This document shows positions 528-44,714 of a stretch of DNA of 64,000 nucleotides, piece by piece. Position numbers and translations under genes: made by a program. Source of the stretch: Clostridia bacterium (GTDB lineage Bacteria; Bacillota; Clostridia; RUG12999). Position 1 is the first letter of the stretch. Every line of letters starts with the position of its first letter. Below the pieces are notes generated by a model, which ran no database searches, had not been told where the DNA came from, and worked only from the letters and a program-made list of their open reading frames with translations. Where the stretch lies: contig JAAWTG010000012.1 of assembly GCA_022801925.1 (NCBI GenBank), positions 1,397-65,396 of the forward strand. Reading direction: 5' to 3'.

Positions 528-715
528 AATTTTTTCCTCCAGTCTACAACTAGTAGTATACCAATATTTACAGAATTTTTCAACCAAAAGACAAGATTAT
601 TTTTAGAAATTACGGAAAAACCTGACAAAAGACCTATTCTATCATATAGATAAACAAGCGCCGCCGATATATCATATTAGAATCCATATAAAATGCTGAA
701 AAAGCGAAAAAAGGT

Positions 716-744
716 TTGACATTGCCGCGGAATAAAGGTAAAAT
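716..744 (+). promoter_or_regulatory. Sigma-A type promoter for yicC: TTGACA, a 17-nt spacer, then TAAAAT.
   Basis: ttgaca at 716-721, a 17-nt spacer, and taaaat at 739-744, about 85 nt upstream of the yicC start. It lies in the divergent intergenic region between rqcH (-) and yicC (+). Confidence 0.5.
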
Positions 745-829
745 ATATAATGGAATGTTAGCATTTGGAATTCTGTACATATCGCTACAATGGCAGAGGA
801 ACCAAATAGAAATGCGGAGGAATAATCAT

Positions 830-1708
830 ATGCTTAAAAGCATGACAGGTTACGGAAGAGCAGAAGTTTTGTTTGATACCAAACGCGTGGTTGTGGAAAT
901 GAAATCGGTGAACCACCGTTTTGCAGATATTAACATCAAGCTGCCGCGTATTTATTCTTTTCTGGAAGAGAAAATCAGAGAAGAAGTGAAGCGGTTTGCA
1001 GCGCGCGGCAAGATAGATGTATTTATCATCATTGATGATTTTCGGGAAGATGGGAAACAAATTCAAGTAGATATGGCGCTTGCCAGTCAATACAAAAAAG
1101 CAGTGGATGCGTTATCGGAAACATTTTCTTTGCAAAATGATTTGACAGCAGGACAGTTGGCGCGCTTTCCTGATATTTTTCAAATTGATAAGACAGAAGA
1201 GGATCATGCGGTGATTTGGCAAGAAGTGAAACAGGCACTTGATGAGGCCGGTGAAAACTTTTTGCAAATGCGTCAGCGGGAAGGAGAACGGATTGGCAGT
1301 GCGCTTTTGGAATGCGGAACCCGTATCCGTACAGTTGTAGAGCAAATTGAACAGTTGGCACCGGCGGCAGTGGAAGATTATCGGCAGCGGCTGCGGGAAA
1401 AAATTGTGGAGTTCACACAGCAACAGGATATTGATGAAACGCGGCTACTGACAGAAGTGGCAATTTTTGCAGACAAAGTGTGTACGGATGAGGAACTGAC
1501 GCGTCTTGGTTCCCATTTGAAAGAATTAGACCATTTGCTGCATTTGGAGGAACCTGTCGGACGAAAACTGGATTTTTTGATTCAGGAAATGAATCGCGAA
1601 GTAAATACTATTGGTTCCAAATGTAATCAGATTGAAATTGCGAAGTTGGTGGTTGATACAAAAGCGGAAATCGAAAAACTGCGGGAACAGGTTCAAAATA
1701 TTGAATAA
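830..1708 (+). CDS. yicC: YicC/YloC family protein (stress-induced; RNase YloC-like).
   Basis: The translation starts MLKSMTGYGRAEV...VNHRFADINIKLPR, characteristic of the YicC N-terminus. A GGAGG lies 8 nt before the ATG at 830. The ORF track's earlier start at 716 is actually the promoter -35 box. Confidence 0.85.
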   Translation: MLKSMTGYGRAEVLFDTKRVVVEMKSVNHRFADINIKLPRIYSFLEEKIREEVKRFAARGKIDVFIIIDDFREDGKQIQVDMALASQYKKAVDALSETFSLQNDLTAGQLARFPDIFQIDKTEEDHAVIWQEVKQALDEAGENFLQMRQREGERIGSALLECGTRIRTVVEQIEQLAPAAVEDYRQRLREKIVEFTQQQDIDETRLLTEVAIFADKVCTDEELTRLGSHLKELDHLLHLEEPVGRKLDFLIQEMNREVNTIGSKCNQIEIAKLVVDTKAEIEKLREQVQNIE

Positions 1709-1764
1709 CCGCGTTATGAATTGCAAAAATATGGAAATACTATAGGAATAGGAGTTTTTGACTT

Positions 1765-2040
1765 ATGAAACTAATCAATATCGGATTCGGCAACTTTGTA
1801 TCAGCAGGAAGATTGGTGGCAATTGTCAGTCCTGAATCTGCGCCGATTAAACGAATTGTACAAGAAGCGCGTGACCGTGGTATGTTAATAGATGCAACCT
1901 ATGGACGCAGAACGCGCGCTGTACTGATTACAGATAGCGACCATATTATTTTGTCGGCAGTGCAGCCGGAAACGGTTGCGCACCGTCTTGGCGGAAAAGA
2001 CGCGGCAGCGATATTGGAGGATGATTTGGATGAAGAATAG
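1765..2040 (+). CDS. remA: RemA/YlzA family regulator (DUF370).
   Basis: The translation [30 protein letters not shown]... is the conserved RemA signature. The gene sits just before gmk, as in B. subtilis. Confidence 0.85.
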
Positions 2041-2638
2041 GGGACTCCTTTTGGTGGTATCAGGACCTGCCGGAGCCGGAAAAGGAACGATTTGCGGCAC
2101 ATTCATGCAGCGCCATCCGCAGGTGCATCTGTCGGTTTCGGCAACAACGCGTGCGCCGCGCGCCATGGAACAGGAAGGTATCCATTACTATTTTTTGCAG
2201 CAACAGCAATTTGAGCAAATGATTGCACAAGATGCGTTTATTGAATGGGCAAATTTTTGTGGCAATTATTATGGAACGCCGCGGGCAAAGGTGGAAGAAA
2301 AACTGGCTGCGGGACAAGACGTATTGCTTGAAATTGAAGTACAAGGAGCGATGCAGGTCAAAAAGAAGTTTCCGGAAGCAGTGCTCATTTTTATTCTTCC
2401 GCCTTCCATGGAAGAACTGCGCAGCCGTATTATAGGACGCGGTACAGAGACCATGGAAGTCATTGACCGGCGTATGGCGCGTGCGGCGGAAGAAGTGGAA
2501 TTAGCACAGCAGTATGATTATTTTATATTAAATGATACCGTGGAAGAAGCAACTGACCGGTTTGAATCTATTGTTCAAGCCGAAAAGATAAAAGTATCCA
2601 GAAATTTGACATTATTAAAGGAGGTTCGTGGACAATGA
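2030..2638 (+). CDS. gmk: Guanylate kinase.
   Basis: The ATG at 2030 gives [21 protein letters not shown]..., a P-loop guanylate kinase. Its start overlaps the end of remA. Confidence 0.9.
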
Positions 2639-2970
2639 TTTATCCACCCATAAAAGAATTAATTGACAAAGTTGGTAACCGCTATAGCTTGGTGGTTGTA
2701 ACAGCAAAACGAGCACGCGAAATTGCGCAGCAAGAACGTGCATTAGAAAAAGAACGGGAGTTGGCGCCGGAACCGACGACGCTGGAAAGCCGTCTGAAAC
2801 GGCTGGAACGTGCTTCCAACAAAAAAATCATAAAACCAATTATCCGTTCTGTACAGGAAGTATATGAAGGAAAAGTATATTTTGTTCAGCACGATTCGGG
2901 TCAGCCGGAGGAACAAAACCCTGAATTGCAGCAGCCTGTGGCTAGTCAGGAAGAACTACCGGCTGAATAA
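2635..2970 (+). CDS. rpoZ: DNA-directed RNA polymerase subunit omega, with an unusually long C-terminal tail.
   Basis: [32 protein letters not shown]... is the RpoZ core. At 111 aa it is longer than the typical ~70 aa. An ATGA overlap joins it to the gmk stop. Confidence 0.85.
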   Translation: MIYPPIKELIDKVGNRYSLVVVTAKRAREIAQQERALEKERELAPEPTTLESRLKRLERASNKKIIKPIIRSVQEVYEGKVYFVQHDSGQPEEQNPELQQPVASQEELPAE

Positions 2971-2985
2971 AGGGGGCTATGCCAT

Positions 2986-4179
2986 ATGTTGCAGGGGAAA
3001 TGCATTGTTTTGGGCGTATGCGGCGGAATTGCTGCCTATAAAGCGGCGGATTTGGCAAGTAAACTGGTGAAAGCTGGTGCACGTGTACCTGTTATTATGA
3101 CGGAACATGCGACCAAATTTATTGCCCCTTTAACCTTTCAAACGTTGACCAATCAGCCGGTTACGACGCAAATGTTTGATGCGCCCATTCATTGGAATGT
3201 GGAGCATATTTCATTGGCAAAACAGGCAGATGCGTTTGTCATTGTTCCGGCAACTGCAAATATCATCGGGAAAATTGCCGGCGGTATTGCGGACGATATG
3301 TTGTCAACAACCGTTATGGCGGCAAAATGTCCCATTATTTTAGCGCCGGCAATGAATACGAATATGTATGAAAACTCCATTGTACAGAAAAATATGGATA
3401 CGCTGAAAAACTTAGGCTATCATATTATCGCACCTGCTGCAGGGCGGCTGGCGTGTGGCGACGTAGGCGCCGGAAAACTGCCGGAACCGCAAATTCTATT
3501 GGAGCAGATTGAAAATATTCTCTATCCGCAAAAGGATTTAACCGGTAAACGGGTACTGGTAACGGCCGGGCCAACGCGGGAGTTCGTTGATCCGGTTCGC
3601 TATATTTCTAACCCCTCTTCGGGAAAAATGGGATATGCATTGGCGCGTGCTGCTCATATGCGCGGTGCGGAGGTAACGCTGGTTTCAGGCCCTGTTGCCT
3701 TGCAGCCACCGCACGGCGTGCAGGTACGTTCTGTTTGCAGTGCAGACGAAATGTATAGAGATGTCATGCAGCAATATCAAACGCATGATATTATCATCAA
3801 AGCTGCCGCTGTAGGGGATTTTAAATCCAAACAACACTATGAACATAAATGCAAAAAAGACCAGCTGCAAACGATTGAACTGGAGAAAAACGAAGATATT
3901 TTGCGTGCAGTATGCAAGAGCAAAGGGAAACGACTTGTGGTTGGATTTTGTATGGAAACGCGTGATTTATTGCAATATGCTTATCAGAAATTATTAGATA
4001 AAGGCGCTGATATGATTGTTGCAAATGACTTAACAGCGCGGGACGCAGGGTTTCAGTCCGACAACAACACCGTGACAATTGTCTATCGGGATGGTCGGAA
4101 GGAGGCGTTAAATAACATGCCAAAATTGACATTGGCACATGCTATTTTGGATCGCTGCGTGAATGATTGCGGCGGATAA
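2986..4179 (+). CDS. coaBC: Bifunctional phosphopantothenoylcysteine decarboxylase / phosphopantothenate-cysteine ligase.
   Basis: It has a flavoprotein N-domain (CGGIAAYKAADLASKL) followed by a DFP ligase C-domain, at 397 aa. Confidence 0.9.
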   Translation: MLQGKCIVLGVCGGIAAYKAADLASKLVKAGARVPVIMTEHATKFIAPLTFQTLTNQPVTTQMFDAPIHWNVEHISLAKQADAFVIVPATANIIGKIAGGIADDMLSTTVMAAKCPIILAPAMNTNMYENSIVQKNMDTLKNLGYHIIAPAAGRLACGDVGAGKLPEPQILLEQIENILYPQKDLTGKRVLVTAGPTREFVDPVRYISNPSSGKMGYALARAAHMRGAEVTLVSGPVALQPPHGVQVRSVCSADEMYRDVMQQYQTHDIIIKAAAVGDFKSKQHYEHKCKKDQLQTIELEKNEDILRAVCKSKGKRLVVGFCMETRDLLQYAYQKLLDKGADMIVANDLTARDAGFQSDNNTVTIVYRDGRKEALNNMPKLTLAHAILDRCVNDCGG

Positions 4180-4206
4180 AACAGAAGAAAGGGACGGTTC
4201 ACGGCG

Positions 4207-6639
4207 ATGAGAGCGGCTTGTATTATTGTGAATACAACATTAAAAAAACTGGACCGTGTTTTTCATTATCTTGTGCCGGAAGGAATGAACCTTCAAACCG
4301 GTCACCGTGTGTTGGTGCCGTTTGGGGCAGGCAACCGGAAACTGGAAGGATACTGCTTGGGATTTGAAGAAGTGGACGCTGCAGCGGCGCTGAAACCTGT
4401 TGCAAGATGTCTGGATGAACAGCCTATGCTCTCACCCTCCAGAGTTGCATTGGCGCAGTTTATGAAACGGCGTTATATTTGTTCCATGACAGAAGCGCTG
4501 CATTTACTGTTGCCGCCGGCAGTTCATTTTCAAATGGAGGAACGCGTTTCTTTGCGCGGAGATATTGAGGCGCAGAAGCTGACGGCAAAACAACAACTGG
4601 TTGCCGCTTATTTACAGGAAAAACAGGAACCTGTGGCATTGACGCAACTTAAAGAAGCGTGTGGTCTTGCAAACCGCAGTGTCATTGACACGCTGCAAAA
4701 AAAAGGTATTGTAGCGGTGACGGAACACGCAGTATATGGGCAGCAAGAAAAATATCAAAAGGTTGTACGGCTGAATGTGGAAGAAGAAATTGCGGAAGAA
4801 GCCATAGAACAAATGCAGCGGCGGGCGCCGGCAGCGGCGGGCGCACTTGGTATTTTGGTGCAGCAGAAAAACTTGCTGCTTACAGAATTGCTGCAAGCAG
4901 CAAACTGTTCCAGACAATCTGTTGAAGTTTTATGCCGCCATGGTTATGCTGTGGTGACGGAGGAAGAACAATACCGCCGCCCCACGCAATGCTCTCCAGC
5001 GCAGCAGTCGAAAAAATATGTACCGACAGTGGAACAGCAAACGGCAATTGAACAAATTACTGCTTCGCTGGAGCGCGGATATGAAGAATTTTTGCTCTAT
5101 GGCGTGACAGGGAGCGGCAAAACAGAAGTGTTTTTGCAAGCGGTAGAAACCTGTTTGCAGCAGGGAAAAAATGCCGTTGTGCTGGTGCCGGAAATTGCCC
5201 TAACGCCGCAAATGACGAACCGCTTTTTAAGCAGGTTTCAGAATCAAGTGGCGGTGTTACACAGCGGTTTATCCTTGGGCGAACGCTATGACGAATGGCG
5301 GCGTATCCGTGAAGGGCGTGTTTCTGTGGTGATTGGGGCGCGCAGCGCTATTTTTGCGCCGTTTGACGATATTGGATTGTTGATTTTAGACGAAGAACAC
5401 GAAACCTCTTATAAATCAGAATCCAATCCGCGCTACCATGCGCGGGAAATTGCAAAATATCGCGCCATGCAGTATGGCGCAACCGTGGTATATGCCTCGG
5501 CAACGCCAAGCATAGAAAGTTTTTACCGCGCGCAGCAGGGTGAATATAAGCTGCTGGAATTGACAAAACGCTATAACGACCAATCGCTTCCTGACGTGCA
5601 AATTGTGGATTTGGCGCAGGAACTACAGCGCGGAAACCGCAGTGTGGTCAGCAGTGTGTTGCAGCGGGAAATTGAGGAGAATTTAAAGAACCGTCAACAG
5701 ACCATTTTGCTCATGAACCGACGGGGACATTCCACGTTTGTTTCATGCAGAAGCTGCGGATATGCGGTAAAATGTCCGCATTGCAGCATTACATTAACCT
5801 ATCATTTTAAAGAAAATCAGTTGATATGTCACTATTGCGGCTATACACAGAACAATATAACAGTCTGTCCCGAATGCGGAAGCAAGCATGTGAAACAGTT
5901 TGGGACGGGAACGCAGAAAGTGGAACAGCAGCTTCAGGAACTTTTTCCGACAGCGCGTATCTGCCGTATGGATGGCGATACTACCGGTCGCAAATCAGCA
6001 CATGAGAAAATCCTGAATGCTGTAGAACAAAAGGAAATTGATATTTTGTTGGGAACCCAAATGGTGGCAAAAGGATTGGATTTCCCCAATGTGACACTGG
6101 TTGGCGTCATCGCGGCAGACACCATGCTGAATGTCAATGACTTTAGGGCGTCTGAGCGTGCTTTTGCACTGTTGGCGCAGGTTTGCGGACGGGCAGGGCG
6201 GGGAGATATTGCCGGTAGAGCGGTGATTCAAACCTATATGCCAACCGATAAAACGTTGTTATTTGCCGCCCGTCATGATTATTTGGGATTTTACCAAAAC
6301 GAAATTCGTTTGCGGCAATTTTTGCGTTATCCGCCTTTTTCGGAAATGGTATATATTATTGCCAGCGGGGAAGAACAGGAGCAGACGCAGCGTTATATGG
6401 CGGATTTAGCCCGCAGACTAACGGCGGAATTGCACAGTGGAAACGGAACAACAGAACTTCTTGGACCGGGTCCTGCCGGCATTTTGAAAGTGAAAAATCG
6501 GTACCGTTATGGTCTTTTGATAAAAACAAGTCATGTAAAAGATATTATTCCGATGCTGGAAAAAATGTATTATTATCATCTATCGTTGAAGAATAATTTT
6601 ACACTTGGTATTGATACAAACCCTAACCATATTTTTTAA
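4207..6639 (+). CDS. priA: Primosomal protein N' (replication restart helicase PriA).
   Basis: It carries a Walker A motif (GVTGSGKTE), a DEEH box, and a Cys-rich zinc region (CRSCGY...CPHC...CHYCGY...CPECG). It is 810 aa. Confidence 0.9.
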   Translation: MRAACIIVNTTLKKLDRVFHYLVPEGMNLQTGHRVLVPFGAGNRKLEGYCLGFEEVDAAAALKPVARCLDEQPMLSPSRVALAQFMKRRYICSMTEALHLLLPPAVHFQMEERVSLRGDIEAQKLTAKQQLVAAYLQEKQEPVALTQLKEACGLANRSVIDTLQKKGIVAVTEHAVYGQQEKYQKVVRLNVEEEIAEEAIEQMQRRAPAAAGALGILVQQKNLLLTELLQAANCSRQSVEVLCRHGYAVVTEEEQYRRPTQCSPAQQSKKYVPTVEQQTAIEQITASLERGYEEFLLYGVTGSGKTEVFLQAVETCLQQGKNAVVLVPEIALTPQMTNRFLSRFQNQVAVLHSGLSLGERYDEWRRIREGRVSVVIGARSAIFAPFDDIGLLILDEEHETSYKSESNPRYHAREIAKYRAMQYGATVVYASATPSIESFYRAQQGEYKLLELTKRYNDQSLPDVQIVDLAQELQRGNRSVVSSVLQREIEENLKNRQQTILLMNRRGHSTFVSCRSCGYAVKCPHCSITLTYHFKENQLICHYCGYTQNNITVCPECGSKHVKQFGTGTQKVEQQLQELFPTARICRMDGDTTGRKSAHEKILNAVEQKEIDILLGTQMVAKGLDFPNVTLVGVIAADTMLNVNDFRASERAFALLAQVCGRAGRGDIAGRAVIQTYMPTDKTLLFAARHDYLGFYQNEIRLRQFLRYPPFSEMVYIIASGEEQEQTQRYMADLARRLTAELHSGNGTTELLGPGPAGILKVKNRYRYGLLIKTSHVKDIIPMLEKMYYYHLSLKNNFTLGIDTNPNHIF

Positions 6640-6667
6640 ATCGCGTGAGAAAGGATGGAATAAGAGT

Positions 6668-7108
6668 ATGGCGATTCGTAAGGTTGTGTTATATGGAGAT
6701 GATATTTTGCGGAAAAGAAGCCGCGAAGTAGATAAATTTGACGAACGGCTGCACCAATTACTTGACGATATGGCGGAAACCATGTATCAACAAAACGGCG
6801 CCGGGTTGGCGGCGGTTCAGATTGGCATTCTCAAACGCGTCATTACCATTGATGCAGGACAAGGCTTGATTGAATTGGTAAATCCGGTGATAGTGGAGAC
6901 CTCCGGCATGCAAAACGGCCCCGAGGGCTGTTTGAGTATACCTGAAAAATTTGTTGATATCAAACGTCCTTATAAAGTAAAAGTGCGTGCGTTTGACCGA
7001 CATGGCAAACCATTCACCATGGAAGGAACTGAACTGTTGGCACGGGCATTTTGTCACGAGATTGACCATTTGGAAGGAAAACTGTTTATAGATTTGATTG
7101 AAAAATAA
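6668..7108 (+). CDS. def: Peptide deformylase.
   Basis: The translation MAIRKVVLYGDDILRKRSREV...GCLSIPE...HEIDHLEGKLF contains the def motifs GxGxAAxQ, EGCLS and HEIDH. The ATG at 6668 is in frame with the longer ORF-track entry. Confidence 0.9.
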   Translation: MAIRKVVLYGDDILRKRSREVDKFDERLHQLLDDMAETMYQQNGAGLAAVQIGILKRVITIDAGQGLIELVNPVIVETSGMQNGPEGCLSIPEKFVDIKRPYKVKVRAFDRHGKPFTMEGTELLARAFCHEIDHLEGKLFIDLIEK

Positions 7109-7192
7109 CAGATTGGAATTTTCCTATTTTTAGGAACCGATTGATGAAATTGTTGAAGTGAAGATGACGATATCCGGGAGGAAAAAACAAAC

Positions 7193-8110
7193 ATGAAAAT
7201 TGTATTTATGGGAACGCCTGATTTTGCGCTCTATAGTCTTAAAAAGCTGGTGGAAAGCCCACATGAAATTTGCGCTGTGTTTTGTCAGCCTGATAAACCG
7301 GTCGGCAGAAATCAAAAACTGCAAAAGCCGCCGGTAAAAGAATTTGCGGATGAACAGGGCATACCGGTATTCCAGCCGGAATCTTTGAAACTGGACATGG
7401 TGAAAAATTGCATAGAAGCGCTGGAACCGGATCTCATTGCCGTTGTTGCGTATGGGAAAATGCTGCCCAAAGCTATTCTGGATTATCCGCGCTATGGCTG
7501 CATTAATGTGCACGGTTCCTTATTGCCAAAATACCGCGGCAGCGCGCCGGTACATTGGGCGGTTATGAATGGAGAAACCAAGACAGGCGTCACGACGATG
7601 TATATGGCGGAAGAAATGGACGCGGGCGATATTTTACTCGCAAAGGAAACGCCGATTGGCGAAACGGAAATTGCAGGCGATGTATATGACCGCTTGGCAG
7701 AAATGGGAGCGGATTTATTACTGGAAACCATTGAAAAGCTGGAAGCCGGTGCATTGAATCCTGTTCCGCAGGACGCCGCACAGGTATCGTTTGCACCCAT
7801 GCTGAAAAAAGAAATGGGAAAAATTGACTGGACAAAAACCTCCGAAGAAATTATCAATTTGATTCGCGGATTGAACCCATGGCCTGTCGCATATACCAAT
7901 ACGAATAAGGGTATACTGAAAATATATAGAGCAGAGAAAGAACAAATTCCTTCCGATTTGCCTCCGGGGACAGTGATTGAAAATCCTACGTCATTAATCG
8001 TAAAAACAGGAAACGGCTGCATTAGTCTCAAAGAAGTACAATTACAAGGCAAACGGAAAATGGATATTGTTGATTTCATTCGCGGAAACACGGTTTCCAT
8101 TGTGTTGTAG
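7193..8110 (+). CDS. fmt: Methionyl-tRNA formyltransferase.
   Basis: It starts MKIVFMGTPDFA...VHGSLLPKYRGSAPV. Def followed by fmt is the conserved arrangement. Confidence 0.9.
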   Translation: MKIVFMGTPDFALYSLKKLVESPHEICAVFCQPDKPVGRNQKLQKPPVKEFADEQGIPVFQPESLKLDMVKNCIEALEPDLIAVVAYGKMLPKAILDYPRYGCINVHGSLLPKYRGSAPVHWAVMNGETKTGVTTMYMAEEMDAGDILLAKETPIGETEIAGDVYDRLAEMGADLLLETIEKLEAGALNPVPQDAAQVSFAPMLKKEMGKIDWTKTSEEIINLIRGLNPWPVAYTNTNKGILKIYRAEKEQIPSDLPPGTVIENPTSLIVKTGNGCISLKEVQLQGKRKMDIVDFIRGNTVSIVL

Positions 8111-21526: not shown

Positions 21527-21588
21527 AGCAACCACTATCCATTATACATTGCAGAAATATTACAATTTCATGAAATAGCTTCATTTTG

Positions 21589-21621
21589 GAGCCTGTTTGC
21601 TTGACAAACGGCTCCATTTTT
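21589..21621 (+). terminator. Rho-independent terminator for the lipoprotein gene.
   Basis: ggagcctgtttg-cttga-caaacggctcc has a one-base bulge and is followed by attttt. Its descending arm contains the -35 box of the next promoter. Confidence 0.5.
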
Positions 21622-21629
21622 GTTAAAAT
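21601..21629 (+). promoter_or_regulatory. Sigma-A type promoter of the recombinase gene (TTGACA-17-TAAAAT).
   Basis: ttgaca at 21601-21606, a 17-nt spacer (aacggctccatttttgt), and taaaat at 21624-21629. The ATG at 21689 is about 52 nt after the predicted start site. Confidence 0.6.
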
Positions 21630-21663
21630 CTAATTAGACAAAATATTAATTTTGTCTAATTAG
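21630..21663. promoter_or_regulatory. Perfect 34-bp palindrome with 11-6-11 architecture (attagacaaaa-tattaa-ttttgtctaat), abutting the -10 box and covering the predicted +1. It is an operator and/or a dif-like core recombination site.
   Basis: ctaattagacaaaat-atta-attttgtctaattag read directly. The two 15-bp arms are exact reverse complements. It lies immediately upstream of the tyrosine recombinase gene at the strand-switch region. Confidence 0.6.
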
Positions 21664-21688
21664 AAGAAAAAAGAATGAGGTGAACGAA

Positions 21689-22648
21689 ATGTCTACATAT
21701 GTGGATAGCCCTCCTATCTTACGCGACTTTTTAAATTATCTTTCTGTTATTAAAGGAAAATCAGATGGCACTGTAAAAGAATATTATTATGACCTTCGTA
21801 CATTTTTTCGCTTTATGAAGATATACCGGAATTTAGCAACGCAAAATTATGATGAATTAGACCGAGTGATAATTGCAGATATTGACACAGCGTTTCTGCA
21901 AACAATTACGCTGAGTGATTTATATGAATTTTTATCTTTTGTAAACCGCTATAAAAAAAATGCAGCGCCGGCGCGCGCACGTAAGGTTGCAAGCTTGCGT
22001 TCCTTTTTTCACTACGTTACCAGCAAAGCAGGTATTTTAAAAGAAAATCCGGCAGCAGACCTAGAAACGCCTAAACTCAAAAAAACACAGCCCAGATACC
22101 TCACCTTGGAAGAATCCAGAAAACTCGTTGGTGTTGTGAGCCAAACCATGAATGAGCGTGATATTTGTATCATTACGTTGTTTCTAAACTGCGGCGTTCG
22201 TTTATCAGAATTATTGAATATCAATATCAGCGATATCCACGGCGACAGTATACGGATTTTGGGAAAAGGAAACAAAGAACGGTTTATTTATCTGAATGCA
22301 CCTTGTACAACTGCGCTGCAAAACTATCTGCGCGTCCGTCCTGTGGAGGGCGTGATAGACCGCGATGCATTGTTTATTTCCAAACAAAAACGGCGTATCA
22401 GTACAAAAATGGTGGGTGTGATTGTGAAAAAATATATTGAGCAGTCCGGTCTTGACCCTACAAAATATTCTCCGCACAAACTACGGCATACGGCTGCCAC
22501 GCTGATGCACCGCTACGGTCATGTAGACGTCCGTATTCTCCAAGAAATTTTAGGTCACCAAAATCTTTCCACAACGCAAATATATACGCATTTGGAAAAT
22601 GAACAGATTCGCGATGCTATGAAGCACAATCCGCTGAACGAAGGATAG
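21689..22648 (+). CDS. Tyrosine-type site-specific recombinase (XerC/XerD-like).
   Basis: It has a SAM-like N-domain and a catalytic domain with the residues R (GVRLSEL), HxxR (KLRHTAAT), H (LGHQNLSTT) and the Y nucleophile (IYTHL). A GAGGTG RBS lies 6 nt before the ATG at 21689. The ORF-track GTG start at 21680 is inside the RBS. Confidence 0.85.
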   Translation: MSTYVDSPPILRDFLNYLSVIKGKSDGTVKEYYYDLRTFFRFMKIYRNLATQNYDELDRVIIADIDTAFLQTITLSDLYEFLSFVNRYKKNAAPARARKVASLRSFFHYVTSKAGILKENPAADLETPKLKKTQPRYLTLEESRKLVGVVSQTMNERDICIITLFLNCGVRLSELLNINISDIHGDSIRILGKGNKERFIYLNAPCTTALQNYLRVRPVEGVIDRDALFISKQKRRISTKMVGVIVKKYIEQSGLDPTKYSPHKLRHTAATLMHRYGHVDVRILQEILGHQNLSTTQIYTHLENEQIRDAMKHNPLNEG

Positions 22649-22656
22649 AAACAACC

Positions 22657-22869
22657 CTATTCCCTATATTTTATCTGAATAAATTGAACCAATGCGTTAA
22701 AACCATATTCCAATGTAACAAAAAATGTTGTACGATTGCTATTGCCACTAAAATAATAACCGGCGTTCGTTTTCGCAATATTACTAAAATCAATATGGCG
22801 ATTAAACATAAAAACAAAAGATACCATTCCAATAGAATAATATTCATAACCAAAGACCCCCTTTTTCAT
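22657..22869 (-). CDS. Possible small protein of 70 aa with unknown function. Doubtful.
   Basis: MKKGVFGYEYYSIGMVSFVFMFNRHIDFSNIAKTNAGYYFSGNSNRTTFFVTLEYGFNALVQ... has non-biased composition, but the RBS is weak. It lies in the AT-rich islet, convergent on the recombinase with a 9-bp gap. It conflicts with an overlapping hydrophobic 60-aa frame. Confidence 0.25.
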   Translation of the reverse strand: MKKGVFGYEYYSIGMVSFVFMFNRHIDFSNIAKTNAGYYFSGNSNRTTFFVTLEYGFNALVQFIQIKYRE

Positions 22870-22874
22870 TTGTC

Positions 22875-22904
22875 AGACACATTCCAGCCAGATGGAATGT
22901 GTCT
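22875..22904. terminator. Hairpin (12-bp perfect arms, 6-nt loop) at the point where + and - transcription units converge. A likely bidirectional terminator.
   Basis: agacacattcca-gccaga-tggaatgtgtct. On the + strand it is followed by ctatgttcttttttt. It abuts the stop codon (22905-22907) of the minus-strand 97-aa ORF. Confidence 0.45.
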
Positions 22905-23198
22905 CTATGTTCTTTTTTTACTCCGGATAAGTAAAATGAAATCAATCAGATATCCTACCATAGCCCCGAGTGTCAATGTGCTAATGAACAGCAGCATAAA
23001 TTCCAACATATAATTCGTGCGCAGATTGGACAGCAATTCACAAATGATATAGACACACAAAGAAATACCAATATGAATGGCAATTTTCTTTGTGTGTTTT
23101 ATTCGTAGTCCAATCACAATAAAAACAATCAGTCCGATTGCAAAAAAGATAAAGGTGTCTGATTCAAACAATTCCTGTAAAATTGGTAAATACCGCAT
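22905..23198 (-). CDS. Small hydrophobic membrane protein of 97 aa with about 3 TM segments and unknown function.
   Basis: An AGAGAGGGA RBS lies about 7 nt before the ATG. It sits 44 nt after the scrK stop, so it is probably the last gene of the sucrose operon transcript. The Ile/Leu-rich composition could partly reflect the AT-rich DNA. Confidence 0.45.
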   Translation of the reverse strand: MRYLPILQELFESDTFIFFAIGLIVFIVIGLRIKHTKKIAIHIGISLCVYIICELLSNLRTNYMLEFMLLFISTLTLGAMVGYLIDFILLIRSKKRT

Positions 23199-23242
23199 TG
23201 TGATTCCCTCTCTATTGCGGTTTCGTATTCTTTCCTAAAATT

Positions 23243-24208
23243 CTATTGTTCACTACGCATCAATGCTTCAATTTCAGCGCGTTCCGGCATGACTTTCAGC
23301 GCGCCTTTTTTGGTAGTAATCAAGGCAGCGCCGGCGTTTGCAAAAAGAAGTGTTTTTCGCAAATTTTCTGCTGTTATATGTTCTATCCCATAAGTCAGAA
23401 CAGAGTGCAGTGCACAGCCTGTAAAGGTATCTCCTGCCCCCGTTTTTTCGATTGTATGCACATTCATAAACGGTTTTGCTTCAACTATAATATCACGATA
23501 ATATGCTCTGCTTCCATCTTTGCCAAGTGTCACAAATACCAATGGCAGGCCATAATTCTCACGGAGCATACGCACCCCTTCTGTATAATCTGTGGTTCCG
23601 GTCATGAATTCCAGTTCATTATCAGAAATTTTTAGGATATCGCACTTTGACAATCCATATGCAATTGCCTTTTTTGCGTCCTCCAGCGAATCCCAAAGCG
23701 GTTCGCGCAGATTGGGATCAAAGGAAACAAGCAATCCATTTTCTTTGGCAATGTCAACTGCATGGTGTGTAGCTTCACGCACACACTCGTGTGTCATAGA
23801 AAGCGTACCAAAGTGAAATATTTTTGCGGCTTTTATGACGTCCTTCTGCACTTCATCCTGGCGGAGCATCATATCAGCACCCGGATTGCGGTAGAAACTA
23901 AACGCACGTTCACCCTCCAGAAACGTATGTACAAATGCCAGTGTCGTATGAACTTCGCCGTCCATTAAAAGATTGGTTACATCAATTCCACTTTCAGCCG
24001 CAGCTGTTTTTAGCATAGCACCAAAGTGGTCGTCCCCTACCTTGCCCATAAACGCTGTTTTTCTGCCGAGCTTACTTAACATAGCAAGTACATTGCAGGG
24101 CGCACCGCCCGGATTCGCTTCCAAAATCGGATTTCCCTGCGTGCTGATACCATTTTCTGTAAAATCCACCAACAATTCGCCAAGCGCAACAACATCGAAT
24201 TTTTTCAA
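23243..24208 (-). CDS. scrK: PfkB-family carbohydrate kinase, probably a fructokinase.
   Basis: MKKFDVVALGELLVDFT...GGAPCNV... carries the PfkB signature. It also has the C-terminal motif TGAGDTF. It lies downstream of a GH32 gene. Confidence 0.8.
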   Translation of the reverse strand: MKKFDVVALGELLVDFTENGISTQGNPILEANPGGAPCNVLAMLSKLGRKTAFMGKVGDDHFGAMLKTAAAESGIDVTNLLMDGEVHTTLAFVHTFLEGERAFSFYRNPGADMMLRQDEVQKDVIKAAKIFHFGTLSMTHECVREATHHAVDIAKENGLLVSFDPNLREPLWDSLEDAKKAIAYGLSKCDILKISDNELEFMTGTTDYTEGVRMLRENYGLPLVFVTLGKDGSRAYYRDIIVEAKPFMNVHTIEKTGAGDTFTGCALHSVLTYGIEHITAENLRKTLLFANAGAALITTKKGALKVMPERAEIEALMRSEQ

Positions 24209-24222
24209 TGGTTTCTCCCCCT

Positions 24223-25533
24223 CTATTCAATTGCATATAGTACCGGTGCATTTTCAGTATTTGTAGTCATATATTCGCCAAGCTGATATACAACATTGGT
24301 AATCACATATTCCCCGTTGTTGATATAAGTTTCTATTAAATTTTGGTCTACATAAATATCCAAATGAATTTTACCGCGTATTTCCGGTGAAGAAAACTTC
24401 GTTTTGATGTCCGTATGTCCGTGAAATACCGCTGTACGGTCAGTATAAATTTTGTTGCCGGCCCTAGAAATCATATATCCGCCAATGTTTATCTGTTCGC
24501 CATCATTGATATCAAGACATACACGGTATCCGGCAGCATTCGCTTCCTGCACTGCATTGATTTTTTTCGTATATTGTTTTTGAATATTGGGGTGAACCGC
24601 AAAGCAAATATGTCCGTTTCGTACACTCACTACGCGTGGAATGCAAAACATGCCACTCCACTCATGATTAACCGGCTGTGGCATTCTTGCCCACGCGACG
24701 ACAACGCGGCGACCTTCAGCATCTGTGGTACTTTGTGGCGCATATAAATCTAGTCCGTAATCCAACATCTGGTATTCATTTGGTATGTCCATGGTGCAGT
24801 CTGTTTCATCAAACGTAACTTTTGTACATATTGACACATGCTGATATTTTTGTTTGTCTGCCCGCAACCCCATAGGAGAAAAAATAAGTATCTTTTCGCC
24901 GTCCAGCTCAAAATAGTCAGGGCATTCCCACATATAACCCAATCCTTTTTTGGATACGCTGTTGACATAGTCCCAATTCATTAAATCATCACTGCGATAG
25001 AACAGCAGTTTTCCGGCATTTTCCGGTGTCTTGCTCCCCAACACCATATACCATGCATCTTTGCCGCGCCAAACCTTGGGGTCCCGCGTATCCGTCATAC
25101 AGCCGATTTCCGGATTCGTCAGCGTTTCTATAACAGTCGTTTTATTTTTGCTATTGTCAAAATGTATACCATCTTCGGAAATCAGCATCATCTGTGCGGA
25201 AACAAGTTGTTCATTCAAAAAAACATGAATATCCTCCGGATTTTCTTCCAGATAACGGACACCGGTATAATACAAGTACATTTTCCCATCATGTTCAATA
25301 GCGCTGCCGGAATAGCAACCGTTTCTGTCATTCCATTTGGAAGGAAATAAAGCGATTGGCAGGTGTTCCCAATGCACTAAATCTTTGCTTACAGCATGTC
25401 CCCAGTGCATCGTCCCCCAGCGCGGTTCATAAGGGAAATGCTGATAAAACAAATGATATTGACCTTTATAATAAATAAATCCATTGGGATCGTTTATCCA
25501 ATTTGCCGGCGATTTTAAGTGTATTTTTTGCAT
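24223..25533 (-). CDS. Glycoside hydrolase family 32: sucrose-6-phosphate hydrolase or beta-fructofuranosidase. It is intracellular, with no signal peptide.
   Basis: WINDPNG (the catalytic Asp motif), RDP and EC motif regions are present (MWECPD), at 436 aa. Confidence 0.85.
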   Translation of the reverse strand: MQKIHLKSPANWINDPNGFIYYKGQYHLFYQHFPYEPRWGTMHWGHAVSKDLVHWEHLPIALFPSKWNDRNGCYSGSAIEHDGKMYLYYTGVRYLEENPEDIHVFLNEQLVSAQMMLISEDGIHFDNSKNKTTVIETLTNPEIGCMTDTRDPKVWRGKDAWYMVLGSKTPENAGKLLFYRSDDLMNWDYVNSVSKKGLGYMWECPDYFELDGEKILIFSPMGLRADKQKYQHVSICTKVTFDETDCTMDIPNEYQMLDYGLDLYAPQSTTDAEGRRVVVAWARMPQPVNHEWSGMFCIPRVVSVRNGHICFAVHPNIQKQYTKKINAVQEANAAGYRVCLDINDGEQINIGGYMISRAGNKIYTDRTAVFHGHTDIKTKFSSPEIRGKIHLDIYVDQNLIETYINNGEYVITNVVYQLGEYMTTNTENAPVLYAIE

Positions 25534-26757: not shown

Positions 26758-29700
26758 TCATTTCATTGAATTTAATAGTTCCGCAATGGTATCTAATATT
26801 TTTTCTTCATTTGTCTCCTGCATTAAATAGGTTAAATAAGGTTTTTCGCCGTTGGAAAACAACAGTTTTCCGAGATGTGTTTTCGCAAGTTCTTTGATTT
26901 TTTCCGGCTGCAACGTACAGTTTGGCGCAAGATAAAACAACAAACGGTCGTTTCTCTGCATAATATCTGTGATGCCGCAGGCGGATGCTTGATGTTTTAA
27001 AAGCGCAATCCGAATCAAATGCGTGACGGGCACCGGCGGTTCCCCGAAGCGGTCAATCACTTCATCTGTCACATCTCGGGCATCCTGGAGCGTTGTCACA
27101 GACGCAATCCGCTTATAGAGTTCAATCCGCAGCGCATGGCTGTCAATAAATTCATCAGGGATATAGGCGTTGACATTCAATTCAATGGACGTCATAATGT
27201 CTTCTTCTACCACTTTTCCCTGCTGCTGTGCAATTGCTTTTTGCAGCAGATTGCAATACATATCATATCCGACGGCTTCCATAGCGCCGTGCTGCTGTGC
27301 GCCAAGCAGGTTACCGGCGCCGCGAATTTCCAAATCCCGCATGGCAATTTTAAAACCGGAACCGAATTCCGTAAATTCTTTGATTGCCATAAGCCGTTTT
27401 ACTGCCACCTCTTGCAGGGATTTATCTTTCCGATAGGTAAGATAACAATAGGCTAATCGGTTGGAGCGCCCTACCCTGCCGCGCAGTTGGTAAAGCTGGG
27501 ATAGTCCCATGCAGTCCGCATTTTCTATGATAATGGTATTGATGTTTGGAATATCCAGTCCGGTTTCAATAATGGTGGTGCAGACCAGAATATCAATATC
27601 GCCCGCTAAGGTGTCCATCATGATTTCTTCCAGTTCCCGCTCGCTCATTTTTCCGTGACCGACTGCGATGCGGGCTTCCGGTACCATTTTGGAAATTTCA
27701 TCCGCAATCCGCTCAATCCCCTCCACACGGTTGTGGACATAGTAGACCTGTCCGCCGCGTCCCAGTTCCTTTTGAATGGCTTCCCGCAAAACGTCGCGGT
27801 CATATTCCAAAATGAACGTTTGCACAGGATGACGGTTTTCCGGCGGATTGGATATCACACTCATGTCTCGAATACCAATCATTGCCATGTGCAATGTGCG
27901 TGGAATAGGCGTTGCTGTTAATGTTAAAACATCAATATTTTGTTTCAATGCTTTGATTTTTTCTTTATCTTTGACGCCAAAACGCTGTTCTTCATCAATA
28001 ATCAACAGACCTAAATCCTGAAAAGATACATCCTTTTGCAGCAATCGATGCGTACCGATAATGATATTAACGCTGCCATTTGCCACTTTTTGAACAATTT
28101 GCTTTTGTTGTTTTGGCGTGCGGAACCGACACAGCATTTCAATCTGAATCGGATAGTCTTTCATTCTCTGCTGGAACGTATTATATTGCTGTTGTGCCAA
28201 AATGGTAGTCGGCACCAAATATGCCACTTGCTTATTTTCCATGACCGCTTTAAATGCCGCGCGGATAGCAACTTCTGTTTTTCCAAATCCAACGTCGCCG
28301 CAAAGCAAACGGTCCATAGGTTTTGAGGATTCCATGTCCTGTTTAATCTCTGCAATACAGGAAAGCTGGTCTTCCGTTTCTTCATATTCAAACGCTTGCT
28401 CAAAAGCGTTTTGCCAATCGGTATCCGGCGCAAATGCAAAGCCTTTTGTGGTTTGACGCTGCGCATAGAGTTCCACTAGTTGTTTTGCAATGTCCTCCGC
28501 ATTTTTCTGCACCCGCGCTTTTGCCTTTGCAAATTCATTGCCGCCCATTTTGTTCAGTTTCACACCTGTTGCGTCTGCTCCGAGATATTTGTTGATACTG
28601 TCGAGCTGCGTCGCAGGAACATAGAGAATATCATTTCCTTTATAGACAATTTTTAAGTAGTCCTTAATTTTTCCGTCTACTTCAATACGGTTGATGCCAA
28701 GATACCGCCCAATTCCGTGCACTTGATGAACAACATAATCCCCTTCTTCAAGGTCTTGATAGGAACGGATACGCTCCCCTTTCATTTTCCGTTTCCGTAC
28801 TTTTTTCCGCTGCCCGCCAAACAATTCACGGCTACTGATAAACACATGTCCCAGTAGCGGATATTCAAATCCTCGAGAATAAGAGCCTTCGTGCAGCACA
28901 ACTTGCCCTGCTTCGGCGGGCGTTCCGTCTTCACAAATGGTGGAAGAAATACCATGCTCCAGCAACGTCTGCGCGAATGTTTGCGCGCGGCTCAGTGTGC
29001 CAACCAAGACATCTACGGCATATTGTTTCCCATACCAATACGCCATATCCTCCAGTATTAAGTTCATATTCCCCTGATACGCCTGTAGATTTCGTGCTGT
29101 GATATTGACAGAGCAAGTGGGGCGGATATATTCATTTTGCGTATGAATACCGCTTATACAAACGACTGTTTTTGTTTTCAACAGCCCTGCAATATCATAG
29201 CTGTCCAGCATATAACTTCCCTTCAACTGCGGCATTTTATTATGCTCAATCAATTCCGCAAGCTGGCTGTGAAATTCTTTCATAAGCGTATCACAGCGGT
29301 CAAACAGCCCGTTGGGATAGTCCAAAAAGATGAGGTCGTCTGCACCAAAATAGGAAAACAGAGTTGGCAACTGCTGATATAGCAGTGGAATATATTTGTC
29401 TACTGCCGGAAAATAGTGCTGCTGACGGAATGCTTCAATATCTTGCCGGATATCGCTGCTCAAATTCAAATGTTTCATTTGTTCCAACGCTGCGGCTACA
29501 TTTTCAGCCATTTCTTTATCGTAAACAGCTTCCCGGCAGCAAATAATTTGAATTTCATCTGTAAGCGGCTGGGAACGCTGCGTTTCAGGGTCAAAGCAGC
29601 GAACCGTATCCACTTCATCATCAAAAAATTCTATACGCAGCGGCTGGTCGCCTGCCGGAGAATAGATATCTAAAATCCCTCCACGAATACTGAATTGTCC

Positions 29701-30231
29701 AATCCCCTCTACTGTATCGCAACGCTTATAGCCCATCAATGCCAACCGCTGCGTTAATATTTTTAAATCATAGCGTTCACCCGGACGGAATGCAAACGTT
29801 ACCTCTTCCCAAAGAGCTGCGGGAAGCGTATACTGCATGAATGCTTCTATGGTTGTCACAACAACCATAGGTGATTTTCCCGCGCGAATTTCCCGCAAAA
29901 CATTTAAACGCCCATGAACCACCTGCATATCGCTGGCTTCAATATGATGAAAAATATAGTCCTTGGGTGCATATAACAATACGCGTTCACGTCCAAAACC
30001 CATGCTGAGGTCCTCGGCAAGACTGCGGGCATCCATCATATTATCAACAACGACCAGTCCTGTCTTTTGTGTTTTCAGCAAAAGTTCCGTAATAAAATGT
30101 GCGCGTGCGCTTTCCGTGATACCGCTGACCATGGTTTTGGAACCGTTTTTTTGTATAGACGAAAGGACCGTCTGATACTCTGCCAGGCGGTCTAAAATTC
30201 CTGTCAATCCTGCCATGGAACTATCCTCCAT
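26758..30231 (-). CDS. mfd: Transcription-repair coupling factor.
   Basis: It is 1157 aa with a UvrB-homology N-region, an RNAP-interaction domain and a superfamily 2 helicase (GDVGFGKTEVA, DEEQRFG). The true start is probably the internal MAGLTG codon at 30216, which has GGAGGA 9 nt upstream. Either way it overlaps or abuts the pth stop. Confidence 0.9.
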   Translation of the reverse strand: MEDSSMAGLTGILDRLAEYQTVLSSIQKNGSKTMVSGITESARAHFITELLLKTQKTGLVVVDNMMDARSLAEDLSMGFGRERVLLYAPKDYIFHHIEASDMQVVHGRLNVLREIRAGKSPMVVVTTIEAFMQYTLPAALWEEVTFAFRPGERYDLKILTQRLALMGYKRCDTVEGIGQFSIRGGILDIYSPAGDQPLRIEFFDDEVDTVRCFDPETQRSQPLTDEIQIICCREAVYDKEMAENVAAALEQMKHLNLSSDIRQDIEAFRQQHYFPAVDKYIPLLYQQLPTLFSYFGADDLIFLDYPNGLFDRCDTLMKEFHSQLAELIEHNKMPQLKGSYMLDSYDIAGLLKTKTVVCISGIHTQNEYIRPTCSVNITARNLQAYQGNMNLILEDMAYWYGKQYAVDVLVGTLSRAQTFAQTLLEHGISSTICEDGTPAEAGQVVLHEGSYSRGFEYPLLGHVFISSRELFGGQRKKVRKRKMKGERIRSYQDLEEGDYVVHQVHGIGRYLGINRIEVDGKIKDYLKIVYKGNDILYVPATQLDSINKYLGADATGVKLNKMGGNEFAKAKARVQKNAEDIAKQLVELYAQRQTTKGFAFAPDTDWQNAFEQAFEYEETEDQLSCIAEIKQDMESSKPMDRLLCGDVGFGKTEVAIRAAFKAVMENKQVAYLVPTTILAQQQYNTFQQRMKDYPIQIEMLCRFRTPKQQKQIVQKVANGSVNIIIGTHRLLQKDVSFQDLGLLIIDEEQRFGVKDKEKIKALKQNIDVLTLTATPIPRTLHMAMIGIRDMSVISNPPENRHPVQTFILEYDRDVLREAIQKELGRGGQVYYVHNRVEGIERIADEISKMVPEARIAVGHGKMSERELEEIMMDTLAGDIDILVCTTIIETGLDIPNINTIIIENADCMGLSQLYQLRGRVGRSNRLAYCYLTYRKDKSLQEVAVKRLMAIKEFTEFGSGFKIAMRDLEIRGAGNLLGAQQHGAMEAVGYDMYCNLLQKAIAQQQGKVVEEDIMTSIELNVNAYIPDEFIDSHALRIELYKRIASVTTLQDARDVTDEVIDRFGEPPVPVTHLIRIALLKHQASACGITDIMQRNDRLLFYLAPNCTLQPEKIKELAKTHLGKLLFSNGEKPYLTYLMQETNEEKILDTIAELLNSMK

Positions 30232-30784
30232 TTACTTCATTCATTGCATAGGGAACGCCGAATTTCATGAGCAGTGGAAGAACATGTTCCACCCGCTTGC
30301 GCGTATCTTCCAGCAATTTCCTGTCCTCCTGCGTGAAATGTCCTAATACATAGTCCGCTAAATCCATTTGCGGCGGGCGATTTCCAACACCAATGCGCAC
30401 CCGCGGAAATGTGTCGGAATTCAACTGATATATAATGCTTTTCATGCCGTTATGTCCGCCGTCACTGCCTTTGGGACGAATACGAATACGTCCAACGTCC
30501 AAACTGACATCATCATATATTACTATGATATTCTCATCTTCCAATTTATAGTAATGCTTTAATTCACGCACACTCTCACCGCTGAGATTCATAAATGTCT
30601 GCGGTTTTACAAGAATCACTTTTTCTCCCTGTATCATACCTTCGCCGCAAAGCGCTTTAAATTTCAGTTGTTTAACCCTGATTTGATAACTTTCCGCCAA
30701 CGCGTCAATCATATCAAACCCAATATTATGGCGTGTTCCTTCAAATTTGTTTCCTGGATTGCCCAGTCCTATAATTGCATACAT
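30221..30784 (-). CDS. pth: Peptidyl-tRNA hydrolase.
   Basis: MYAIIGLGNPGNKFEGTRHNIGF is the Pth signature. An AGGAGA RBS is present. Confidence 0.9.
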   Translation of the reverse strand: MYAIIGLGNPGNKFEGTRHNIGFDMIDALAESYQIRVKQLKFKALCGEGMIQGEKVILVKPQTFMNLSGESVRELKHYYKLEDENIIVIYDDVSLDVGRIRIRPKGSDGGHNGMKSIIYQLNSDTFPRVRIGVGNRPPQMDLADYVLGHFTQEDRKLLEDTRKRVEHVLPLLMKFGVPYAMNEVNGG

Positions 30785-44684: not shown

Positions 44685-44714
44685 CTTTGAGGACAAGCTG
44701 GCTTGTCCTCAAAG
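44685..44714. terminator. Hairpin between the SEDS gene and ywiB, a possible attenuator or partial terminator.
   Basis: ctttgaggacaagc-tg-gcttgtcctcaaag has perfect 14-bp arms. It starts 4 nt after the SEDS stop and has no strong U-tract. Confidence 0.4.

Follow-up and report, generated by a model that had tools for sequence, protein, structure and literature searches.

A candidate single-recombinase Xer/dif module at a probable replication terminus in the Clostridia

The DNA analyzed here is a stretch of 64,000 nucleotides (the window) of contig JAAWTG010000012.1 from the genome of a Clostridia bacterium (GenBank assembly GCA_022801925.1). At positions 21689 to 22648, its plus strand carries a gene for a Xer-type tyrosine recombinase of 319 amino acids plus stop, and a perfect palindrome with the layout of a dif site ends 24 nt before the ATG of that gene, not 25 bp as had been stated in an earlier note on this DNA. 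The gene is the only plus-strand gene to the right of the site; it reads away from the site and against the local direction of replication. The earlier note had proposed a Xer/dif-like module at the replication terminus, with the gene linked to its site, and the conservation of the pair, the co-variation of the arms of the site, the nucleotide skew and the prophage evidence all agree with that proposal.

A repeat search found a perfect inverted repeat formed by positions 21629 to 21644 and 21649 to 21664, with arms of 16 nt, a gap of 4 nt and 100% complementarity. The full palindrome, which is assigned to neither strand, measures 36 bp (21629 to 21664), with the arms TCTAATTAGACAAAAT and ATTTTGTCTAATTAGA on the two sides of the 4-nt gap; it had been put at 34 bp, whereas its form, a perfect 11-6-11 repeat, had been described correctly. 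The dif-like core within it, likewise without strand, comprises 28 bp (21633 to 21660) and consists of the left arm ATTAGACAAAA (21633 to 21643), the center TATTAA (21644 to 21649) and the right arm TTTTGTCTAAT (21650 to 21660). ATTAGACAAAA-TATTAA-TTTTGTCTAAT has the 11-6-11 geometry of a tyrosine recombinase core, and Xer/dif sites are structurally marked by two inverted arms, each about 11 bp long, that enclose an asymmetric center of 6 to 8 bp; the center of the window's site is 4 bp long if the invariant T and A are assigned to the arms. No perfect inverted repeat in the window is longer (loop of at most 8 nt), and when the window was simulated 40 times with a first-order Markov model, the longest arm had 8 to 14 nt, so that 16 nt was never reached. 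The half-site has no other copy in the 64 kb, even with up to 2 mismatches. Scored with a position weight matrix made from 44 sites, the core reached 35.4 bits and was the sole match above 14 bits in the window. The outer TCTAATTAG extension of the palindrome is restricted to the lineage of the window: the outer CTAATT is also present in the close relatives L051 and L036, and the related locus L081 (aatttaATT) has a shorter palindromic extension. A transcription terminator was considered and rejected as an identity for the palindrome, which is A/T rich and is not followed by a run of T, and the terminator-like hairpins of the upstream gene lie at 21578 to 21611. No RNA family of Rfam matched anywhere in the window.

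The open reading frame of the recombinase is present as described and ends at 22648. The length of 322 amino acids that had been given for it corresponds to a start at GTG 21680; ATG 21689 is favored, because a Shine-Dalgarno-like GAGGTG, read from the sequence, is found on the plus strand at 21677 to 21682, 6 nt ahead of this ATG. The protein matches the Pfam family Phage_integrase (PF00589) with 1.3e-34, above the cut-off, and its N-terminal domain matches the SAM-like family PF02899. The catalytic set, which had been called complete, is indeed complete in an alignment to E. coli XerD (PDB 1a0p), with R171, K196, H263, R266, H290 and Y299. All six residues are invariant in 15 aligned family members. 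Their equivalents in E. coli XerD are presumably R148, K172, H244, R247, H270 and Y279 (XerD numbering).

None of the curated Xer models accepted the protein. It scored 216.7 bits with the XerC model TIGR02224 (cut-off 335.15), 195.6 bits with the XerD model TIGR02225 (cut-off 329.6), 191.2 bits with the archaeal XerA model NF040815 (cut-off 220) and 136.9 bits with the XerS model (cut-off 267). Five relatives, among them an A. thermocellus protein named XerC by NCBI, gave 219 to 238 bits with the XerC model, 203 to 216 with XerD and 195 to 211 with XerA, and every one of these scores is below the cut-off. Among solved structures, E. coli XerD (5.5e-33) and the archaeal XerA of Pyrococcus (1.8e-32) are closest in sequence, with XerH (5jjv) far weaker at 1.6e-15. 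An AlphaFold model (mean pLDDT 77) predicts the two-domain fold with an N-terminal core-binding and a C-terminal catalytic domain, and its best Foldseek matches over about 300 columns were XerA 5hxy (6.6e-13), XerA 4a8e and XerD 1a0p, followed by lambda Int, XerH, IntI and Cre. A protein search returned 7999 proteins at E <1e-20, with a few close relatives and then top matches that were 55 to 65% identical. The closest named homologues (55 to 60% identity) come from Acetivibrio, Pseudoclostridium, Petroclostridium, Pseudobacteroides and unclassified Clostridia, and homologues are labeled "XerC" in the source records. Judged by its sequence, the recombinase is a member of a distinct Xer-like subfamily that lies outside every curated Xer equivalog.

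The palindrome is kept beside orthologous recombinases. With a 15-member alignment, 80 ortholog loci were fetched from genomes of different Clostridia species. Perfect inverted repeats were sought upstream of each gene, and one architecture recurred with varying arm sequences. Exactly one site above 14 bits, and never two, was found in 52 of them. It lies 41 to 252 bp upstream of the gene in 44 loci and within 10 kb in 8 more, at -618, -660, -1360, -5190, -5807, -8617, +2168 and +2219 bp from the gene. Site-bearing genera are Acetivibrio, Pseudoclostridium, Thermoanaerobacterium, Mahella and Thermohalobacter, to which many metagenome-assembled genomes (MAGs) are added, with a protein identity of 55 to 60%. 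The consensus of the site across the orthologs is ATTnnnCrAAA-TnnnnA-TTTyGnnnAAT; examples are ATTATACAAAA-TAAAAA-TTTTGTATAAT, ATTCAACAAAA-TAAAAA-TTTTGTTGAAT, ATTACGCGAAA-TATAAA-TTTCGCGTAAT and ATTAAACATAA-TGAATA-TTATGTTTAAT.

That the two arms are identical had already been noted for the window, and across genomes they co-vary: 56 genome sites contain 13 distinct arm sequences, and through all this variation both arms are identical in 46 of the 56. Among the unique sites, 24 of 33 are symmetric, compared with a mean of 4.3 and a maximum of 11 in 2000 shuffles of the partner arms. All 15 variants of the center, on the other hand, are nonpalindromic, as a directional recombination site requires. 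A likeness of the arm to the half-site of the Firmicutes dif had also been claimed. It is moderate in the window, with 7 of 11 positions, and better in relatives, in which the commonest arm TTTTGTATAAT agrees with the XerD half-site TTATGTAAACT of B. subtilis at 8 of 11 positions (B. subtilis dif from PMC3025954); the arm of locus L074 is TTATGTTTAAT. The B. subtilis dif itself, searched with up to 3 mismatches, had no match in the window. Matches to the XerD half-site alone occur there at chance level; the one near the terminus, at 22801 to 22811 on the minus strand, is inside an open reading frame and has no matching partner arm. The canonical Firmicutes dif was also absent from 1.38 Mb of related loci, in which a looser scan gave 7 weak, nonpalindromic matches.

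Two further features of the relatives' sites were observed. On one side of most of them there is a conserved G-rich motif, approximately tGGGaGGaGG (for example at 4125 to 4136 of L083, and in L052, L006 and L068). The motif persists even when the gene is kilobases away, and this gives a polarity to a site that is otherwise symmetric. The motif might have been left by a former ribosome-binding site, or it might be an accessory element or a word that orients a translocase. In the window the motif is missing (21661 to 21675) and the TCTAATTAG extension of the palindrome is found instead. At loci L044 (12220 to 12247) and L050 (5577 to 5604), the site is located about 2.2 kb downstream of the gene and has identical arms; the two centers, TGAACA and TGTTCA, are reverse complements of each other, as if the center or the whole site had been inverted.

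The recombinase gene had been placed at a convergence of gene orientations, and indeed the strands of the open reading frames and the GC skew both switch there, in the sense expected for a terminus. Long open reading frames are on the plus strand up to and including the recombinase gene and on the minus strand beyond it. Measured over windows of 2 kb, GC skew stays between +0.11 and +0.21 until about 21 kb and between -0.10 and -0.23 once about 22 kb is reached, and the cumulative skew of the 64 kb has its maximum at 22441. The proposed terminus location is supported locally by this flip, from about +0.13 to about -0.13 at 21 to 23 kb, and in relatives by flips and mid-chromosome positions. 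Of 33 loci that extend 2.5 kb or more to each side of the site, 23 had positive skew on its left and negative skew on its right, the reverse flip was seen in none of the 33, and 17 ortholog loci without a site had no skew flip. Site and gene were compared as positions of the switch at four loci where they are 2 to 6 kb apart (L008, L044, L050 and L052). The cumulative-skew maximum was at most 250 bp from the site in three of the four (L008, -23 bp; L044, +35 bp; L050, +244 bp), and in L052 it was 1.1 kb from the site and about 4.7 kb from the gene, which is itself 5.8 kb from the site. On whole chromosomes, A. thermocellus AD2 (CP013828.1; 3,554,854 bp) has a perfect ATTATACAAAA-TAAAAA-TTTTGTATAAT at about 1,753,421 bp, 5.9 kb from the gene, and P. 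thermosuccinogenes (CP021850.1; 4,731,216 bp) has its site at about 2,003,079 bp, 1.35 kb upstream of the gene; these positions correspond to 49.3% and 42.3% of the chromosome if coordinate 1 of the records is near oriC. Polar words of the KOPS/SRS type were also looked for. Many purine-rich 6- to 8-mers are strongly skewed toward the site, but the test was uninformative, because nearly all genes are co-oriented with replication.

Viruses carry the site as well. A scan of IMG/VR with a degenerate pattern of the site matched at least 120 viral contigs, and among the matches listed 36 of 120 were fully palindromic at the three free arm positions, compared with 1.6% by chance. One of these contigs, L189 (5272 nt), is a Microviridae genome with a major capsid protein (phrog_514, 9e-231), a replication initiator, a pilot protein and a virion structural protein (phrog_1642), and the genome is enclosed by two dif-like sites that differ from each other and lie 5041 bp apart (110 to 5178). 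A related virus is integrated in the cultured isolate Pusillibacter faecalis MM59 (L210, NZ_AP023421.1), whose record is a 504-kb replicon with radA and ruvABC and whose Xer homologue is 52.6% identical to the protein of the window. The order there is radA, a degenerate site (ATTGAGCAAAA-TAATAC-AATTGTTCAGT), a microvirus prophage of about 5.3 kb (2626 to 7925), an intact site (ATTAAACAAAA-TAAAAA-TTTTGTTCAAT) and xer, with the intact site beginning 85 bp upstream of the annotated xer start; VP1 of the prophage is 73% identical to VP1 of L189. Microviruses have no integrase and are known to integrate through the dimer resolution system of the host (PMC9753089, PMC7062461). An integrase-less prophage between an intact and a degenerate site is the layout of such integrase-less elements (IMEX), and this argues against a site that is an operator only. 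Exploitation by IMEX was found in these relatives (L210 and L189) and not in the window.

Other small replicons combine a homologue with a site of their own. The inovirus-like contig L101 (6.6 kb, with a Zot-like protein and a rolling-circle Rep) encodes a Xer homologue at 798 to 1604 (42% identity) and has a perfect palindromic site of the same family at 2189 to 2216. L122, L108/L130 and L141 (7.7 to 9.5 kb) likewise contain a homologue (48 to 55% identity) and a perfect site, with a Zot match only in L130. On a pSOL1-type plasmid of C. acetobutylicum (L211, NC_015686.1), the near-palindrome ATAACGACAAA-CATAAA-TTTGTCGTCAT occupies 3886 to 3913, 84 nt upstream of the homologue, and gene and site may form a plasmid multimer resolution module. 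Homologues with 45 to 52% identity were observed on 31 Clostridium plasmid records, C. botulinum plasmids among them; the small C. botulinum plasmid L209 had no convincing site beside its homologue. The tailed-phage contigs L095 (5444 to 5471) and L164 (3603 to 3630) have an asymmetric dif-like site with one consensus and one degenerate arm, which in L095 lies between the small and large terminase genes and in L164 between a gp3-type packaging gene and an unannotated open reading frame of 568 amino acids. About 25 further IMG/VR contigs of 25 to 57 kb resemble these two in carrying an asymmetric dif-like site.

The position of the palindrome in the window suggests a second role. A spacer of 162 bp separates the plus-strand open reading frame that ends at 21526 from the one that starts at 21689, and it contains, in this order, the two terminator-like hairpins, a promoter, the palindrome, the ribosome-binding site and the ATG. 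The predicted promoter is of the sigma-70 type and spans 21601 to 21629 on the plus strand, with TTGACA at 21601 to 21606, a 17-nt spacer, a TG extension before the -10 box and TAAAAT at 21624 to 21629; this putative promoter agrees with the consensus at 11 of 12 positions and scored best in the 2.5 kb that were scanned. The core starts 4 nt past the -10 box and spans the predicted transcription start and the early leader. Therefore, bound recombinase would block the start of transcription. The same order of promoter and site, with 11 to 12 of 12 matches, was found in about 15 related loci, whereas most other site-bearing loci have no recognizable promoter there. Thus, autoregulation of xer through the site is plausible as a secondary role in the window's lineage, but it is not the function that is conserved. 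Le Bourgeois et al. speculated likewise for xerS/difSL, where the site may lie in or after the promoter of the gene (PMC1914069).

We read the core at 21633 to 21660 as the dif site of the chromosome and the gene at 21689 to 22648 as encoding the Xer recombinase that acts there, and for this reading, which is built on comparison of sequences, we estimate a probability of about 0.7. The Xer would probably be the sole recombinase for the site: the perfect identity of the arms argues for a single binding species, and the prophages bracketed by copies of the site in relatives argue for real recombination, beyond repression. One protein species would bind both identical 11-bp arms, and the two dif sites of a dimeric chromosome would synapse as a tetramer. 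Tyr299 would cut at the borders of the asymmetric 6-bp center, and two sequential pairs of strand exchanges via a Holliday junction would yield monomers. The asymmetric center would confer direction on the site. Occupancy of dif may also repress xer in the lineage of the window, and a translocase of the FtsK/SpoIIIE type may control the reaction.

Several observations weigh against this reading. In the DNA examined, 28 of the 80 ortholog loci have no site, although some are too short to judge, and some ortholog genes are more than 10 kb from any site, so linkage is not universal. A clear skew flip is missing from 10 of the 33 site-bearing loci, most of which have a weak skew or plus-strand genes downstream. 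A draft genome of P. thermosuccinogenes (L208, NIOI01000001.1, 8327 to 8944) is without the 400-bp segment that contains the site in the complete genome (L206, 8533 to 8933). At the place of the missing segment, L208 has an inverted duplication of 176 bp, which could have arisen during assembly or through a true rearrangement at dif. Finally, identical arms would also be compatible with a catalytically specialized second paralogue of the same DNA specificity.

A second Xer partner encoded elsewhere is the only serious rival to the single-recombinase reading. The site would still be dif, with the protein as one of two Xer paralogues. Most Firmicutes do use two Xer proteins (PMC5357621, PMC3025954), and the name "XerC" in the source records of family members would fit such a pair. 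However, the outer arms of XerCD dif sites differ clearly from each other, those of B. subtilis sharing about 5 of 11 positions, and here the arms stay identical in 46 of 56 sites through 13 variants. The protein also scores about equally with the XerC and XerD models, under both cut-offs, and the inovirus-like L101 and the plasmid L211 each pair one gene of the family with a palindromic 11-6-11 site of their own. Indirect evidence comes from the dif survey by Kono et al., which took only genomes with both XerC and XerD in KEGG; neither C. thermocellum nor Thermoanaerobacter is in its supplement table (PMC3025954). Taken together, we consider a two-recombinase system unlikely.

The three remaining explanations deny the palindrome or the gene its role in dimer resolution. 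The palindrome could be an operator only, bound by the recombinase or by some other repressor, as had been offered as an alternative in the earlier note. The distance of 4 nt between the 11/12 promoter and the core, which would block initiation, and the similar arrangement at about 15 related loci speak for an operator, and as a secondary role it is probably real. As the sole function it is very unlikely, since at least 10 genomes have the site 0.6 to 8.6 kb off or downstream of the gene, not at the promoter and still at the skew switch, most sites are not preceded by a recognizable promoter, every center is asymmetric and microvirus prophages are inserted exactly at the site. Gene and palindrome could instead be what is left of a mobile element, namely the integrase and att site of an integrative element, or of an IMEX, that landed at the terminus and decayed there; a recombinase gene beside its own site is typical of integration modules (discussed for XerS in PMC1914069), and the gene has relatives on Clostridium plasmids and small phage contigs. 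This alternative, too, had been raised before, and it did not hold: the flanking genes are kept in L081, whose recombinase is 86% identical, the window has no flanking direct repeats and no second site was found in it, profile searches of the window proteins revealed no phage or transfer genes nearby, and the family recurs at the skew switch across many genera. We regard a mobile remnant as highly improbable. The terminus position and the dyad symmetry would also suit a Ter-like site of replication termination, bound by a terminator protein such as RTP of B. subtilis, the more so as in B. subtilis the gene of the terminus-binding protein adjoins its sites. But the adjacent gene in the window encodes a tyrosine recombinase and no homologue of RTP or Tus, each locus has one site and not a polar array, the arms resemble the XerD half of dif, and phages integrate at the site, so that a Ter-like site is hardly tenable.

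Single-recombinase systems known so far are XerS/difSL, XerH/difH, XerL/dif and the archaeal XerA/dif (PMC5357621, PMC2731167, PMC3325230, PMC9765430). Like the proposed clostridial module, XerS/difSL of streptococci and lactococci has a single Xer-type gene beside dif at the terminus. However, the protein of the window reaches only 136.9 of the 267 bits demanded by the XerS model and is about 40 amino acids shorter, and difSL has 31 bp, an 11-bp center and imperfect arms (PMC5357621), whereas the site of the window has 28 bp, a 6-bp center and perfect arms. XerH/difH of Helicobacter and Campylobacter likewise has a single recombinase, and most species have its gene linked to the site (PMC2731167, PMC3325230); these systems differ from the window in phylum, in the low similarity of the proteins (1.6e-15 to 5jjv, compared with 5.5e-33 to XerD) and in the arms of difH, which are only partly symmetric (PMC9765430). 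The dif of the single recombinase XerL in Legionella and Coxiella has long, uninterrupted, perfect inverted arms, and the site of the window is equally symmetric; the discovery of XerL started from a mobile element that had integrated and that mimics dif (PMC9765430). In contrast to the family described here, whose site usually adjoins the gene, xerL and dif of L. pneumophila are more than 400 kb apart, and XerL was detectable by HHpred only and is not closely related to XerC/D, whereas our family is clearly Xer-like by sequence. The archaeal systems combine a single Xer with a dif of conventional size. XerA is the model that comes nearest to accepting the family (191 to 211 bits, cut-off 220), and XerA structures are the top fold matches; the window family differs in being bacterial and in an N-terminal domain that is about 25 amino acids longer (residues 1 to 91 correspond to XerD 1 to 65). 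Archaeal XerA is reported to be FtsK independent. With XerC/XerD (CodV/RipX) of Bacillus and other Firmicutes, the family shares the superfamily, the catalytic set, a 28-bp dif of 11-6-11 form, the skew switch and, in 7 to 8 of 11 positions, the XerD half-site of the canonical dif; it differs in its identical arms, the linkage of gene and site, scores below the cut-offs and the absence of a canonical dif nearby.

We found no description of a clostridial site or recombinase of this kind in the searchable literature, subscription journals excepted, with queries on the topic, on organisms and on the site sequences themselves. Clostridia are not mentioned in the four papers on single-recombinase systems named above (PMC5357621, PMC2731167, PMC3325230, PMC9765430), and in PMC1914069 Clostridium serves as a taxonomic comparison only. 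Kono et al. found nothing in C. perfringens or C. beijerinckii, and their dif predictions for C. botulinum are 137 to 176 degrees from the shift point of the GC skew (PMC3025954, Supplement 2); therefore, the latter are unlikely to be real dif sites. Chromosome dimer resolution is poorly defined in Clostridia. In its widest form, our proposal is a Clostridia-wide single-recombinase Xer/dif family that stands beside XerS, XerH, XerL and XerA, with a perfectly palindromic dif of XerD-type arms that usually lies in the xer leader and may be both target and operator, and that microviruses, inoviruses and, possibly, tailed phages without an integrase would use as their att site in gut and cellulolytic Clostridia; the odds for this wider proposal appear even. 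As proposed, the clostridial module extends a known kind of system and brings no new principle. A defined site would mark the terminus precisely when clostridial genomes and MAGs are assembled and oriented, and together with its recombinase it would explain the choice of integration site by integrase-less microviruses and by filamentous phages in gut Clostridia. In hosts that resist engineering, A. thermocellus and Thermoanaerobacterium among them, the pair could also be a small, self-contained tool for site-specific recombination, for example for marker excision in the style of "Xer-cise," and a simple system in which to study how one protein recombines at a site and regulates itself through the same site.

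The neighbors of the module are housekeeping genes. To the left is a pair of M16 genes of the yfmF/yfmH type, and to the right are pfkB, a GH32 hydrolase gene and prsA; further right in the window, mfd and pth are assigned by synteny with L081. The flanking order yfmF-yfmH-small open reading frame/xer/prsA-mfd-pth is common to the window and L081. Between xer and prsA, the window has an additional segment (22657 to 25533) with two small open reading frames of 70 and 97 amino acids, the pfkB sugar kinase gene and the gene of the GH32 sucrose-6-phosphate hydrolase. These genes are missing from the otherwise syntenic L081, which amounts to an insertion or deletion of sugar utilization genes beside the terminus. 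The open reading frames in the positions of mfd and pth of L081 lie at 26758 to 30784, with prsA just to their left, less than 10 kb from the skew switch. The mfd and pth genes of B. subtilis are origin proximal. The second-longest perfect palindrome of the window, CTTTGAGGACAAGC-TG-GCTTGTCCTCAAAG with arms of 14 nt, is located at 44685 to 44714 in a gap of 71 bp between two minus-strand open reading frames and may be a terminator or an attenuator.

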